Source: Escherichia coli
GTDB lineage: Bacteria; Pseudomonadota; Gammaproteobacteria; Enterobacterales; Enterobacteriaceae
Strand: one strand, 5' to 3'
Assembly (NCBI RefSeq): GCF_045037415.1
Contig: NZ_CP173438.1
Length of the DNA: 64,000 nucleotides
In this document: positions 51,101 through 57,100 of the stretch, piece after piece
Layout of the letters: each line of letters starts with the position of its first letter
How positions within the stretch are numbered: the stretch's first letter is position 1
Position numbers: made by a program

Positions 51101-54100
51101 TGACCGGGATACTGTTTTTTTGCGCCAATGTGATCGCTTGTTGCAGAGCGGTATAATTTGTTTCGAGCTGCAGAAGTATGACATCAGAATTAATAATCGC
51201 TTCTTTCTGAATAGTTATTTCATCGGACGACATTGTCATGTTGGCACCGGGATAGATCGCAATAACATTATCGCCAGTACCTTCATTAACAAGGATCGTG
51301 GCAGTTCCGGTTTGCGTTTCTTTCGTTTGATAAATTATACTTTTATAAATCTTAGACGAATTCATAAAGTTGATCGCATAATCACTAAAGTGATCTGTAC
51401 CTACTTTTGTTATGAAATAAACATCAGTATCGGCAAAGCTTGCTGCCAGCGCTTGGTTACAGCCTTTTCCCCCCGGTGAAAATATAAAATTACTTGCCAG
51501 AAGCGATTCTCCGATAGTGGGAAGCCTCGGCAAATAACTGATGATATCAACATTAAACGAACCAATAACGCATACTTGACTTTTCATAGTTGAGTGGCCT
51601 TTTTTTATTCCCTGGGCTGTATCATAATTTTCAAGCGCATAAGCGATTTCATTTTTCGCAATAGTATCAAGCGAGTCTAGGACGATAAAAGCACCGCCAT
51701 GACATCGAGTCAGATAGCCAAGCCTGGCAAGTTCATTAAGATCTGATCGAATAGTTTCTTTCGTTACATTGAGGCTATTGGACAGATCGGATACTTTTAC
51801 AGAACCGAATTTACTGAGTCGTTTCAATATTTCATGATGGCGTTCAAATTTCATGCTTCACCTCACTTCAGTTACGTTAATATCTATCGATGTATATTGA
51901 TGTGATAATCACCATAAAGTGGCGGGGAAAAGCAAAAAAAAGCAAAAATAGCCTGAGAAAAGGTAAGCGTTAATGGAGAATCATATTGATGCTTATTTAT
52001 TGGTGAGAACTACGTTCCATGGCAGGAGTTCATCAATACGGTTGGAAGGTTATTCCGGCAGTACGCTCAGGATATGGCGCAGATACGCTTCCGGATCAAT
52101 GTCGTTCAGAAGGCAAGTGCCGATAAGCCCATACAACAGTGCACTGCGCTCGCCGCCGAAGAACATAAAGTTTTTATTTCCGAGACAGATGGCACAAAGG
52201 GCTTTTTCCGCGGCATTATGTCTGCCTCCGCCTGACCGTCAACACTGTAATAACAGAGTGCGCCCCACTGATTCAGTACACAGCTGAACCATTCACCCAG
52301 TCTGGATTTTTGGATAGCGTGGCATTTTTCTCCACCATGCATGCAGTGAGTCCAGTAACAGTTTGCTCTTCTTCTGCCTGACCACAAGATGTGCTGGACT
52401 GGTAAACGATGGGGATACCTGCTTACGCGAGAGCAATAAGTGGCTGGCCACAATTCTCGGTACAAAACTCTGCTGAATAGCAGCGATTTTCCCAGCGTGG
52501 TGCGTCGTTTGCATTTTACTGGTTCTAAGTTAACAATTATCTGTTCACTAATGACTACTCTAAAAACTTGTATCAGGACTATCACTTATTTAAGTGATAT
52601 TGGTTGTCTGGAGATTCAGGGGGCCTGTCTAGAGAGATATAAAGATACCTTCACCCCGGTGATGATAAAATAAAAGTATCTCAGCTATTAAACTGATGTA
52701 CGATTCGGGCAATAACTTATTCGTATAGAGCACCTTTTCTCTGGTGCTCTATACGAATAAGTTATTGCCCGAAATTAATTATATTGTTTATTATCAAACC
52801 GAGTTATAGCTTTTCTCTGAAAACTACCGAATAAAATATACTGATAGACTGCTGCCTAGAATTTCCAGATCAGGTGGGCTGCAAGTTGCAGACCGTTATA
52901 ATCATCGGTTGGGGTGTTGAACCACACTTTACCTGCCGTCAACCCGAGATTAAGTTGCTCAGTCAGCGGTTGAATTCGTTGCAAACTGATGCTCTTCATG
53001 CTGCCGTAGCGTGTTTCTGGCGTCCAGTCGTAGGTGTAAGCACCTGTTCCGCGGCTTAGCCATAGTTGCGTATAACCAGCACCGCGCGGGTCCTTCAGAC
53101 GCACGGAAATCATATTGCTATAACTACTACCTGCATCGCTGGAGTCATAATGGGTATAGCGGTAACTGGTGATCACCGGGCCAGTATAGAGTGATACGCC
53201 GCCTTGCCAGGCATTGACTTCGACATCATCGTAATATTTAGTGTAGCGATAACCGGTCGTGAAAAGCGTTTTTGGCAACAGGGCTAGGTTAATATCCTGT
53301 CGAAAATCCTGGCGGGCAAAGACCGGCGTATTATCCGCAAAGGCAATACCCGTTCGGGTTGTCAGCCAGTTATTCCATTTGTACCAGACTGCACCCTGGC
53401 CGCGAGTGGCATTGAAATGTTCAGTTTCATAATCACGACGCCCCTGGGAAAGATTAAAAAGCAGCGTTGCGTTTTCAACTTTTGCTACCAGTTCAGCATA
53501 CGCTAAATTACGGTTGCCATGTTCGCCAGAATAATCGGTAAAATCGTAGCCCGCGGTAATGGAAGTTAACCCGGCATAAGCGGGCAATGCACTAAAAAAA
53601 AACGGCACTAATAACGTATGCTTTATCATTTTAATCTCCTGTACGGATAAGTTCTTGTCGGAGTGAGTAAGTTCCACTAGGTAAATTACGTTCTACAATC
53701 ACGCGCGGGCCAAGTTGTGTGTTCGGAGAAATAATTCGCCCAGGCAAAATAATAACTTGTACGCCAAGGCGTGAACGCTTCCCGATATAACAACCTAATT
53801 TATCGCATCCGGTAGCGATAATTCCCTCTGGAGTTCGAACAGACACGGGTTGTTCATCCAGACGATGATTACTGGTACGTACTTGTGCGCCCAAATATGC
53901 CTGGTTTGCAACTACCGAGTCGGCAATAAAGCATTGCGGACCAATCGTTGCTTCCGCTTCAATAACCGCATTTTTAATTTCGGTGGCAAAACCAATTTTT
54001 ACGCCATTGCTGATTATTGTGCCAGGACGAATAAACGCATAATTACCTATCAGGCAGTTTGCGCCAATCACTACCGGCCCCTGAATAACGGCACCGTGGC

Positions 54101-57100
54101 AAATACGGGTATTCGCGCCGATAACAACCTCACCGGCACTTTCATCAATAATCACCTGGTCTGCAATCTGAACATTTTTCTCTTTAGCATTAAGCTTCAG
54201 ATAGTTTTTCAGTTCCTGTGACAGAAGGTTGGGAATAAGCGGTTGACGCTTCCACCAGTGCGGAATAGCGGGTGGGTTTGTCGCGCTGAGGTTCGCGTCC
54301 AGTAAAAAAGGCAATAAGTCCATAAATAATCCAGATGGCATAAGCTAATAATACATACACAACGGAAAGCGGTGCTAAAGGCACCAACAACCAGCAACGA
54401 TGAAACCAGGCGCTAAATGCACCAATAACACAAACTACGCCGACCCAGATAAGCGGGAACATTGCCAACACCACACCATGTGGCCCGGTGGTGATGAATT
54501 CATTAAACCAGGTAGTGAGATAAATACCAACGCCATAAAGCACAACCAACAGCATAGGAAATATACTGAAGATACCGAAGCGGCTAAATAAAAGTCTTTT
54601 ATGCAGGCGCATACAGACCGCGTAGCCCACAATCCAACGCCGCCAGCGGCGCCACTCCTCACGCGGACTGTTACATTCCTGTGGGTATACGATGCAGCGA
54701 TTCGCCTGCCGAATACGGTAGCCGTTTGCCACCAACGTCCAGGTGAGATCAAGGTCTTCGACTTTAGTACGATCAGAGAAACCGAACTTACGCAATACAT
54801 CAGTACGGAACATCCCGCAGGCACCGCTGATAATAAACGGTGCACCGCCCAGAAACTGCTGTAGCGTGCGCTTCATAACAATCATCGGCAACTTTACGGT
54901 GGCGCGGATATGTGGCAGCAGACCTGCCCCTTTTAACGCGGTGGAGGGAATTCCGCCAACGGCATCAGCGCCGCGCTCAATTTCTGCCAGCATATAGCCC
55001 ATTCCATCATTATCAGGTGGAACGAAAGTATCTGCATCACTTAAAAATACTTGATCACACGTGGCGTATTTTAGTCCATGCATTAGTGCGCCACCTTTAC
55101 CGGTGTTTTTTTGCGTGACGGCAACAAAGCGGTCGCCCCATTTGCGTTTGACTTCCGCCATGACCGCTTCGGTATTGTCCGTGGATCCGTCGTTAACGCA
55201 AATTACCCGGCAAAAATAAGGGTTACGCAGCAGATTATCCAGTGACTGCGCCAGACACGGGCCTTCGTTATAAGCTGGTATAATGGCGTCAATACAGCCT
55301 TTCTTTTGACAGGGTTTACGTCTTAGCGTACTTAAAAACCATAGCAACATTGCTATGGTCATGAAGATAAATAACAAAGTTTTCATTTCTATTACTCCGT
55401 TACAACACCATCTTATGGACAACAAAACCTTCACACATAGAATGACTAACCTGTTGTCCTCGGAATTTGGCTTGAGCAATTATGTATTCTGGCTGTATGT
55501 ATCTTCGATGGATCTGGCTTTTATGCTTTTGTAATGCTAATATTTTTTTATTAAAATGGACCTCATCTACAGATTCAAAAACTTGAGGTAAAAATGACAG
55601 ACATGTACTTGGTGTTTCGTATCCTAGTATTTGAGGAATATAACGACAGGCAACCATTGATGCCTGATAAACAGCAATGTGATCCTGATGCCTGTCAGTA
55701 TTATTCATGGTGTAAACTCGAGTAATTTCCACATCCTGGGGCGTTTCATTCTCAATTATGTATTCCAGAGATGATATCATCTCTTTTATTTGCAAATATA
55801 ATCTGGTATCTTCAAAATTTAGAGGGATTAGTTTATTGCATCCTAACATATTTAATGCTTCTTGTGATTCCTTGTGACGATCAATATACTCTGCGCCACA
55901 GCAACCAGGTGTCATGACAACAGATATAATATATACTTTTTCATTAGAATAATATGAAAGAGATGCACCACATCCTAATTCTATATCATCAGGATGGGCA
56001 CCAATTGCTAAAATGCCGGTTCTTTTTCCCGAAGATGTTGTAGAATTCAACATGTAATCTATCCTTTTAGATATGCCATATGAATCCCCATCATAAATTA
56101 TCACTATCATAAAAATTAATCTTATTAAATATACTTTATATTTACTTTTTCAGAGGCAGAGAAGCATCATTTATGCAACAAGAAGATCTTCATTTCTGTT
56201 AAAAAAACAGAGTTTATATGCTATTACGGATTTCAGTCGTAGCAAGTTGAACTGTGATCGCATTAAGACTAATCTTCTGGCTTGTAAAGGCCTTAGTTCC
56301 GTCATGACTCTCCCATCAGGCCATAGTTGAGCAAAATCCTGAAAGAATTATCACCTATTGTATCTTCAGATACGGGAGTTTTTGTCCAGTATTGTTGGAA
56401 TAATCATGTGACTATATTGTTCTTGTAGTTGGAACGTCTTATAAATAAAACGAAAAGGCAGTAAGTTTGTTGTATTTATTGATATTTTTCATTCAGTTAG
56501 TTGGCAATAATCAGTTATGGTTGTATTCAAAAGTACAGCTAGAACGAAATTAAAATAACGGGAGCATCGTACATGACTTGATATTTCAGAGGGCTAAGTA
56601 TTAATATATTACTACGATCTGTCATCATTGACTATCAATATATTAGTTAGTTAAATATCTCTTTGTGTCATTCTGGCTAGTATATACTCATTATCATGAA
56701 TGCTGCCATGCATAGCTAGGTCATCACCAATTAATGATATTCTCTGGATAATGATTCAAGAGTTTAAGTTCATTGTATATATAAGTTTGTATTCAAAGGT
56801 AATAAATTCCTTGTTTATTATTTCTCATGAAAATAGTTAAGAAGGAGTGAAGAGTCTGTTTTTTTGGTAGGAGAGTCTTTATTTATGTGTTTGCTATTAA
56901 TGAATTTTTGTTAAGGTAGCCTCATTTGTCATAATTTTGCTAATATATGTATCGTCATATGTCGTGTTTTACTAAAAACTTAACTATCATGAACTCGTGA
57001 TAGTAACAATATACCCTTAAGGTAGAACTTTTTCTTGATGAGAAGGTTTAAGTTTGTAGTTCAGAATATTACTGCCAAGATAGTTTATACTAGGATATGT

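Follow-up and report, generated by a model that had tools for sequence, protein, structure and literature searches.

We analysed a 64,000-nt stretch of Escherichia coli DNA (contig NZ_CP173438.1, assembly GCF_045037415.1; the whole stretch is called the window), in which the original prediction had placed a four-gene operon resembling a module for exopolysaccharide synthesis, modification and export. An open reading frame (ORF) scan of the window showed a head-to-tail array of four closely spaced minus-strand ORFs (52856-56110), confirming the co-oriented, tightly packed genes at the predicted coordinates. Profile matches from Pfam and NCBIfam likewise recovered the predicted domain types, namely PIG-L, family 2 glycosyltransferase (GT2), hexapeptide repeat and barrel. 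RefSeq annotates the four genes as yaiO, an acetyltransferase, yaiP and a PIG-L protein, and K-12 carries the counterpart yaiS-yaiP-yaiX'-yaiO (b0364, b0363, b4579 and b0358) between frmR and tauA. The region is an intact, island-borne copy of the E. coli yaiS-yaiP-yaiX-yaiO operon, already annotated, and not a new locus. Its features are as follows.

55400 to 56053, minus strand: yaiS-like PIG-L/LmbE zinc deacetylase, 217 aa (PF02585, E 4e-21)
54190 to 55386, minus strand: yaiP-like membrane GT2 synthase, 398 aa (PF00535/PF13641/PF13632)
53631 to 54323, minus strand: yaiX-like hexapeptide (left-handed beta-helix, LbH) acyltransferase, 230 aa from ATG 54323 (PF00132)
52856 to 53629, minus strand: yaiO-like outer-membrane 14-strand beta-barrel, 257 aa (TIGR04390)
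54190 to 54323, minus strand: out-of-frame overlap, 134 nt, between the 3' end of yaiP and the 5' end of yaiX, yaiX in the +1 frame relative to yaiP
54298 to 54324, minus strand: yaiP codons 355-363 (YGLIAFFTG), coinciding with yaiX codons 1-9 (MDLLPFLLD), free of synonymous variation
56054 to 57034, no strand: AT-rich unannotated spacer between yaiS and a divergent ibrA-like gene, 31% GC
52704 to 52773, minus strand: perfect inverted repeat (31 nt, loop of 8 nt) lying 83 nt past the yaiO stop

The gene extents in the original prediction were those of the longest ORFs, and the likely starts lie at 56053, 55386, 54323 and 53629. For yaiS, ATG 56053 matches the N-termini of orthologues, RefSeq uses ATA 56062, and the longest ORF begins at 56110; for yaiX, the options are ATG 54323, the RefSeq CTG 54224 and the longest ORF at 54341. 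The spacing is operon-like, with 13 nt from the yaiS stop to the yaiP ATG, overlapping yaiP and yaiX, and 1 nt from the yaiX stop to the yaiO ATG. Shine-Dalgarno-like sequences precede yaiS (AAGGA, 8 nt upstream), yaiP and yaiO.

We compared the window copy with that of K-12. The two have the same gene set and order, the same annotated products and the same YaiO family membership, and are about 90% identical overall; the window copy sits in a tRNA-Asn/cobUST island beside ibrAB-like genes. In the window yaiX is intact, whereas in K-12 it is split by IS2. YaiS of the window is full-length, as are distant orthologues, whereas K-12 YaiS lacks the conserved C-terminal ~35 aa.

The synteny search proposed with the original prediction gave a clear result. 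The starting points were YaiO homologues with identity as low as 23% and YaiP homologues of at least 52% identity, and all 26 complete loci carried the PIG-L, GT2, LbH and YaiO genes in constant order in unrelated genomic contexts; a 27th locus, truncated by its contig, keeps this order in the retained part. The linkage holds even where YaiO identity drops to 22-25%. The cassette was found in Escherichia, Citrobacter, Superficieibacter, Salmonella, Stenotrophomonas, Lysobacter, Pseudoxanthomonas and Acinetobacter (there on a Rep3/MobA plasmid), and further in Pseudomonas viridiflava, Alphaproteobacteria and metagenome-assembled genomes of Sphingomonadaceae. YaiP is the slowest-evolving of the four proteins (61-68% identity between E. 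coli and Xanthomonadales or Acinetobacter) and YaiO the fastest, and dN/dS values of 0.06-0.29 indicate purifying selection on all four genes. The surroundings differ at every one of the 27 loci, and among these loci we found no fifth conserved gene, no linked flippase, NodIJ-like inner-membrane exporter or ArnT/LgmB-like GT-C transferase, no conserved neighbouring tetratricopeptide repeat (TPR) gene, and no small membrane partner of the PgaD/IcaD type. Conservation of the cassette in unrelated contexts rules out that the operon is a piece of a larger O-antigen, capsule or lipopolysaccharide (LPS) core locus. The yai operon is a compact, widely transferred module.

The four-gene xagABCD biofilm operon of Xanthomonas, in which the GT2 gene is second, was considered as the same system and judged probably different. 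The genome scan returned no Xanthomonas locus among the Xanthomonadales present, and the papers on xagABCD do not state the families of XagA, XagC and XagD.

To place YaiP, we combined profile, alignment and structure-model comparisons. Its best NCBIfam match was PgaC_IcaA (TIGR03937; 102.1 bits, E 3e-29), and the next families scored at most 42 bits. E. coli PgaC shares 29% identity with it over 230 residues (hhalign 99.4%). The YaiP motifs NDGSTD, SDADT and VEDLDLTW align with NDGSTD, IDGDA and TEDIDISW of PgaC and are invariant in 30 orthologues; identity across YaiP orthologues is 52-96%. Sequence-only PDB searches with YaiP or its profile matched the N-terminal nucleotide-binding half only, so a fold search was needed. 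In the AlphaFold2 model (predicted local distance difference test score, pLDDT, 77.7) the GT-A domain lies between a single N-terminal transmembrane (TM) helix and an interface helix carrying WRRWRRW, and three more membrane helices follow at the C-terminal end. The top Foldseek matches of this predicted model in the PDB were hyaluronan synthases, aligned through the TM region with a query TM-score (TMq) of 0.58-0.65; against BcsA the TMq was 0.47. Neighbours in the AlphaFold Database were GT2 enzymes resembling poly-N-acetylglucosamine (PNAG) synthases, many of them CE4-GT2 fusions (TMq 0.66-0.76), some carrying the automatic label 'monoglucosyldiacylglycerol synthase'. Thus sequence places YaiP closest to PgaC/IcaA, and predicted fold places it closest to the hyaluronan synthases. 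After the last membrane helix, all YaiP orthologues also carry an invariant charged motif, GREPxRDKPTRY (residues ~363-374, 54268-54300), which could be a gating loop or a docking site.

Weak sequence matches of the N-terminal half of YaiP to ArnC, GtrB and DPMS raise another reading, in which an existing envelope glycan (lipid A, LPS core or enterobacterial common antigen) is modified: YaiP would make undecaprenyl-phosphate-GlcNAc (GlcNAc, N-acetylglucosamine), YaiS would deacetylate it and YaiX would modify it further, following the logic of the Arn and Bordetella Lgm pathways, where a GT2 and a deacetylase do occur together. The fold match to undecaprenyl-phosphate transferases, however, covered the GT-A domain only (TMq 0.35-0.39, against 0.58-0.65 for hyaluronan synthases), and YaiP has the EDxDxxW and xxRW motifs of synthases. 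No locus carried a linked flippase or periplasmic GT-C transferase, and a dedicated outer-membrane barrel has no role in such pathways; moreover, the module lies outside any O-antigen, capsule or core locus. We therefore consider modification of an existing envelope glycan highly improbable.

YaiO matched TIGR04390/PF19413 over the full profile (positions 1-230 of 230) with 183.6 bits against a cutoff of 32, and has a predicted Sec signal peptide (N-terminus MIKHTLLVPFFFSALPAYA/G). Its AlphaFold2 model (pLDDT 92) is a closed 14-strand barrel with neither a plug nor a TPR or other periplasmic domain, most similar to the 14-strand sugar channels CymA and OmpG, with FadL also among the closest. 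YaiO is only 8-11% identical to CymA, OmpG, Omp33 and FadL, is shorter, and lacks a hatch or N-terminal plug; it always ends a biosynthetic operon and does not sit in an uptake operon. TPR-YaiO fusions, to be expected from the TIGR04390 description, were not found: in a phmmer search of 1.84 billion representative sequences, which gave 112 representative homologue clusters, the credible matches included no such fusion and nearly all homologues were stand-alone barrels (full-length ~250-290 aa).

YaiS carries the PIG-L/LmbE domain (PF02585, E 4.3e-21), and its zinc motifs AHPDDIELGCG (AIGAHPDDIELGCG) and DRHQDH are invariant in 8 orthologues. Its nearest solved relatives are diacetylchitobiose deacetylase (8bgn/3wl4) and BshB (6p2t), and it scores below the BshB1 cutoff (TIGR04001; 65.6 versus 182.5 bits). 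It thus shares its fold family and zinc-site motifs with diacetylchitobiose deacetylase, BshB, MshB and PIG-L, but its genetic partners are a synthase-type GT2 and an outer-membrane barrel, with none from a thiol pathway or from chitin catabolism. YaiX gave LbH matches to PF00132 (twice) and PF25084, contains the strongly conserved core motifs YLGAQVRTSNHRLD and GPQCF(I/V)ADS, and aligned with 83 bits to the C-terminal amino-sugar-1-phosphate N-acetyltransferase domain of Sulfolobus ST0452 (2ggo/5z09); its GlmU equivalog scores were far under the cutoffs. In this ungapped HMMER alignment, the positions of ST0452 His308, Lys337 and Lys340, which we take to be catalytic-base and sugar-phosphate-binding residues, are occupied in YaiX by Pro/Gln, Gln and Ser, and Asn331 and Arg333 are retained. 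Neither YaiS nor YaiX has a signal peptide, and both are predicted to be cytoplasmic; they would therefore have to act on the donor, the primer or the cytoplasmic end of the chain.

A phenotype has been reported for this operon. According to the EcoGene 3.0 paper (PMC3531124), which cites a 2011 meeting abstract by Dague et al., repair of yaiX' in K-12 led to clumping in vegetative growth, and YaiP was required. The other literature found on yaiO consisted of E. coli PCR marker and screening lists. Taken with the synteny and with the family and fold of YaiP, the reported clumping supports the claim that the operon serves to synthesise, modify and export a surface glycan. We consider it somewhat probable that the yai genes form a self-sufficient, mobile four-gene module that makes and exports a surface glycan based on N-acetylhexosamine (HexNAc), probably of the GlcNAc/glucosamine (GlcN) type, and thereby brings about cell-cell aggregation. 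Our own data establish the gene identities, the strict four-gene linkage, the purifying selection, the fold classes, the lack of signal peptides on YaiS and YaiX and the structure of the overlap; we infer which sugar is used, that YaiP is processive, what YaiS and YaiX act on, the conduit role of YaiO and the regulation.

In the proposed mechanism, YaiP, an inner-membrane GT2 like PgaC and hyaluronan synthase, would polymerise a UDP-HexNAc donor and, like hyaluronan synthase, would translocate the chain through its own membrane channel, needing no partner subunit. YaiS and YaiX, the latter resembling N-acyl- and acetyltransferases, would work on the cytoplasmic side, on the donor, primer or chain end named above; YaiS would remove the N-acetyl group, and YaiX would re-acylate or otherwise tailor the amine. 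The order of GlcNAc transfer, PIG-L deacetylation and acylation would follow that of other PIG-L pathways and of Nod-factor synthesis. YaiO, as a plug-less 14-strand barrel, would provide the outer-membrane passage, and H-NS would probably silence expression through the AT-rich leader.

The part of the original prediction that drew a parallel with PNAG systems did not hold at the level of mechanism. With pgaABCD/icaADBC, Yai shares the membrane GT2 superfamily, a de-N-acetylase, an outer-membrane barrel and, as far as the cited report goes, aggregation. The PNAG deacetylase PgaB/IcaB is a CE4 enzyme that works outside the cytoplasm, whereas the Yai deacetylase is a PIG-L protein lacking a signal peptide, and since YaiS and YaiX are both predicted to be cytoplasmic, the mechanistic parallel fails. 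Yai also has an additional cytoplasmic LbH acyltransferase, no PgaD/IcaD and no detected cyclic di-GMP (c-di-GMP) module. YaiO has 14 strands, no TPR and belongs with the CymA/OmpG class, whereas PgaA, BcsC and PelB have 16 strands and PgaA bears a TPR domain. More generally, the Pga, Bcs, Pel, Alg and Nfr systems have a TPR scaffold joined to or paired with the porin, whereas Yai has the YaiO barrel only. Class I hyaluronan synthases (CvHAS and XlHAS1), the best solved-structure matches to YaiP across the GT and membrane domains, set a precedent, in that one polypeptide both polymerises a chain containing HexNAc and translocates it. YaiP is 14-17% identical to them, has fewer TM helices and gives no sign of a second sugar specificity; the hyaluronan synthase signature motifs are GDDR, QxxRW and WGTR. 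Yai is a non-canonical variant of the synthase-type glycan machines.

Several observations weigh against an exported, polymeric surface glycan. YaiP falls below the PgaC/IcaA equivalog cutoff (102.1 versus 422.3 bits), and where PgaC has QRLRW, YaiP has RWRRW, in which RW is kept and Q is replaced by an R (R247) that is invariant in the 30 orthologues. Cytoplasmic enzymes cannot reach a translocated chain, so the role of YaiS and YaiX in a polymer pathway is unclear, and YaiO is nearer to channels for oligosaccharides and hydrophobic substrates than to known exopolysaccharide porins. The module also contains no c-di-GMP receptor, co-polymerase, TPR scaffold or periplasmic component, and to our knowledge every characterised Gram-negative synthase-dependent system has such parts. 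Pfam scans of YaiP, YaiS and YaiX detected no PilZ, GGDEF-I-site or MshEN domain, and a cryptic binding site is possible. Finally, the sole phenotype goes back to a meeting abstract that a database paper cites, no isolated product is known, and K-12 is reported to clump despite its C-terminally truncated YaiS, which counts against the reading if the truncation is inactivating.

The predicted cytoplasmic placement of YaiS and YaiX, marked by the lack of a signal peptide on both, keeps a small oligosaccharide or glycolipid product as a serious rival. YaiP would make a short chito-oligosaccharide or add a single GlcNAc to a lipid or aglycone, YaiS would deacetylate it in the cytoplasm, YaiX would add a non-acetyl acyl group to the free amine, and YaiO would serve as the outer-membrane exit for this oligosaccharide-sized or amphipathic product. 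The PIG-L enzymes of the glycosylphosphatidylinositol, mycothiol, bacillithiol, teicoplanin and aminoglycoside pathways act right after a GlcNAc transferase, often with acylation or ligation next, and the nearest solved relatives of YaiS use small GlcNAc glycosides (diacetylchitobiose and GlcNAc-malate). The Nod-factor pathway (NodC, NodB and NodA/NodL) follows the same logic, combining a GT2 HexNAc synthase, a cytoplasmic de-N-acetylase and an acyl- or acetyltransferase, and NodL is also an LbH enzyme. In size and layout (one N-terminal and three C-terminal TM helices) YaiP is like NodC, the channels closest to YaiO (CymA, OmpG and FadL) pass oligosaccharides or hydrophobic compounds, and the automatic 'monoglucosyldiacylglycerol synthase' labels among the YaiP neighbours point the same way. 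Yai differs from the Nod pathway, however, in that its deacetylase is PIG-L and not NodB/CE4, that it has neither NodA nor NodIJ, and that it has a dedicated outer-membrane barrel instead. The match of YaiP to NodC (TIGR04242) was weak (E 2e-7, 30.3 bits against a cutoff of 550), and PgaC/IcaA is by far its best curated family (102 versus 30 bits). Nothing comparable to the NodIJ exporter and no flippase accompanies the cassette, the fold match to hyaluronan synthase covers the channel-forming membrane region, and clumping, as reported, suggests an adhesive polymer retained at the surface. The three ST0452 residues His308, Lys337 and Lys340 are not kept in YaiX, which leaves its substrate open, so that acyl swapping is not specifically favoured. 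On this evidence a small glycoconjugate is possible, and on balance unlikely.

We also considered a more specific and still more speculative form of the proposal. Yai might be a new minimal four-protein surface-glycan machine lacking a periplasmic scaffold, a co-polymerase and a c-di-GMP receptor, and carried across Proteobacteria on plasmids and genomic islands. Its cytoplasmic PIG-L and LbH enzymes would replace the N-acetyl on GlcNAc with a different acyl group, either ahead of synthesis or in its course, and an N-acyl-glucosamine polymer or lipo-oligosaccharide would leave through the 14-strand barrel. We hold this to be rather doubtful.

We then examined the overlap of yaiP and yaiX, for which the original prediction had offered a sequencing frameshift, a mis-called start or a genuinely long overlap of about 150 nt. 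The last option is the best supported, at a length of 134 nt and not 150: at the ORF level the overlap is 152 nt (54190-54341), and it is 134 nt when counted from ATG 54323. In non-enteric loci the junction reads (A/G)TG TGG TGG xxT GA, so that the LbH protein starts with MWW and the GT2 stops 14 nt on. In the Enterobacterales a non-start codon precedes WW (CAC at 54260 in the window) and the GT2 has lost its TGA; through this loss YaiP gains 19-24 non-conserved residues (the last ~19 aa in the window). ATG 54323 is kept in 9 of 9 enteric loci, where it opens the conserved MDLLPFLLD, and in 3 of the 9 in-frame stops lie just upstream of it. Among the 398 aligned codons of the 9 enteric yaiP genes, 15% of third positions are invariant overall, yet codons 355-363 have nine consecutive invariant third positions; no other invariant run reaches 4, and simulation gave P ~1e-5 for a run of at least 9. 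In non-enteric yaiP, the 11-codon stretch 357-367, which covers most of this region, varies freely at third positions (diversity 0.61). From these sequence comparisons we conclude that ATG 54323 is the probable start of YaiX and 134 nt the true length of the overlap, and a 14-nt ancestral overlap appears to have become a 134-nt dual-coding overlap in the Enterobacterales through a moved YaiX start. The constraint at codons 355-363 could instead reflect a nucleotide-level element, and both readings point to initiation there.

Other explanations for the junction fared less well. A sequencing frameshift was rejected, as both frames are intact and the arrangement occurs in both E. coli alleles and in Citrobacter, with at least 99% identity in 835 records. 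The RefSeq start at CTG 54224 is unlikely because a protein begun there would lack the WW motif, which 11 of 11 orthologues retain; RefSeq starts for yaiX vary (CTG 54224, another CTG or ATT; three non-canonical starts in three genomes), and the current CTG or ATT starts are probably wrong. Programmed frameshifting from yaiP to yaiX was also rejected, there being no suitable slippery site. A natural YaiP-YaiX fusion of 481 aa exists (cluster P0105, 15 member sequences) and is traced to a 1-nt deletion in the A5 run of GAAAAAC inside the overlap (~54200-54212 in the window).

To place the operon in the genome, we compared its surroundings and distribution. The window spans the his operon, a CP4-44-like island and cobUST, with the operon about 12 kb from cobUST and tRNA-Asn, and the 3.6-kb operon region is 100% identical to that of E. 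coli strain SK1144. Of 5426 complete E. coli genomes, 4928 match the operon and about 9% have no match. Island-type junctions occur in about 840 of the 5426, including 536, ABU83972 and Nissle 1917, and the frmR-yaiO junction in 4281; some genomes have an empty frmR|tauA site. Judged from these totals and not genome by genome, at least 193 genomes would carry both junctions. The island and frm-tau alleles are mosaic: from mid-yaiP to the end of yaiO their DNA is 94-99% identical, identity declines across the 5' part of yaiP, and yaiS shows 66-80% nucleotide identity with many indels, the breakpoint zone lying at ~54830-55430. Relative to E. whittamii, dS is 1.65 for yaiS and 0.32 for yaiP. YaiS of the window is at most 65% identical to every other YaiS examined, except the truncated K-12 copy (67%). 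In the frm-tau locus, yaiS looks decayed: the K-12 copy has lost its C-terminal end, and that of TOE17 carries a pseudogene annotation. The enlarged yaiS-yaiP gap holds the small gene ykiC on the opposite strand (locus records L002, 9989-10546 and 9890-10009, and L014, 5800-6210).

This decay, with IS2 in K-12 yaiX, the fragments and frameshift fusions seen in assemblies, the genomes that have no match, the existence of an empty site and an H-NS flag at the K-12 promoter, would fit a silent, decaying remnant of no present function in E. coli. Against it, all four genes of the window copy are intact and retain every catalytic motif, and the copy is conserved at 99% identity or more in 835 records and, by dN/dS, is under the purifying selection noted above; the dual-coding constraint in the overlap is maintained, and the repaired K-12 operon is reported to yield a phenotype. 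We regard a functionless remnant as very unlikely and retain the surface-glycan module as the preferred reading.

The original prediction had called the operon markedly AT-rich against flanking core genes and of foreign origin. GC content is 45.2% for the operon, 49.6% for the window, 48.5% for yaiP and 48.4% for yaiO. The clearly AT-rich parts are yaiS (GC 35%, 26% at third codon positions, GC3), yaiX (GC3 36%) and the 972-bp upstream spacer (31%), so the description applies to yaiS, the spacer and partly yaiX, but not to yaiP and yaiO. The flanking genes proved to be cargo of the island and not core genes, and their GC content is similar or lower. The foreign origin itself is supported by the variable chromosomal site, the empty site and plasmid carriage rather than by composition.

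The spacer (56054-57034) contains no ORF of at least 60 aa, is island-specific and occurs in 843 genomes including Nissle 1917. Scans of 52400-57100 for consensus promoters and terminators gave counts not above those of shuffled sequence (15 versus 13.9 and 4 versus 3.8, respectively). The equivalent yaiS-tauA spacer of K-12 contains an RpoD promoter and bears an H-NS flag (PMC3946193), in keeping with the high AT content of the leader in the window. The window spacer presumably serves as operon promoter and silencing region, the silencing here being what we infer by analogy with K-12. Outside E. coli, the cassette of Citrobacter, Stenotrophomonas and Pseudoxanthomonas adjoins a response regulator of the NarL/FixJ type (GerE), accompanied by a sensor kinase in two of them (loci L007, 9013-11183; L008, 5590-6243; L011, 1199-5723), which hints at two-component control there. 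The inverted repeat at 52704-52773 has a predicted RNA folding energy (dG) of -65 kcal/mol (z -11.5) and no T-tract, is single-copy and is specific to the island-type locus. It could be a terminator, an mRNA-stabilising hairpin or a junction scar. Its only Rfam hit, a plant microRNA precursor below the gathering score, was dismissed as an artefact of the stem.

The operon is flanked on one side by an IS66 remnant followed by a cluster of PfkB kinase, amidotransferase and drug/metabolite transporter (DMT) genes, and on the other by divergent ibrA/ibrB-like genes (57035-58953, plus strand) encoding PAPS-reductase-like and ParB-like proteins. The first cluster, downstream of the IS66 remnant (47800-51854, minus strand; 38-47% GC), encodes a DeoR-HTH/PfkB kinase fusion, a class-I amidotransferase-like protein, the DMT transporter and a phosphotriesterase-related protein; it has the look of a small catabolic unit carried separately within the island. 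In a Salmonella island, too, ibrAB homologues (L004, 48-1897; IbrB 71% identical) lie upstream of the yai cassette, separated from it by a few kb that encode a YadA-anchor adhesin and a PapB-like regulator. The proximity of ibrAB to yai cassettes may reflect a regulatory link or mere shared island cargo; a search of the ibrAB literature turned up nothing useful. Past ibrB lies a TonB-dependent receptor gene (59324-61498, minus strand), and further upstream in the island are a second TonB receptor and an ABC iron-type transporter (~28800-33800 in SK1144 coordinates, which drift slightly from the window upstream of the matched region).

The broken K-12 copy is probably the reason why this operon has stayed uncharacterised. 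The yaiP/yaiX junction offers a clean natural case of a coupling overlap growing into a dual-coding overlap. If the preferred reading is true, the aggregation glycan made by the yai module would be a further E. coli matrix component beside cellulose, PNAG, colanic acid and the Nfr polymer, and among known synthase-type export systems Yai would be the most compact one and the first with a cytoplasmic PIG-L/LbH pair. The carriers include uropathogenic and probiotic B2 E. coli (536, ABU83972 and Nissle 1917), and the intact island allele in these strains makes the proposal directly testable in backgrounds relevant to colonisation.

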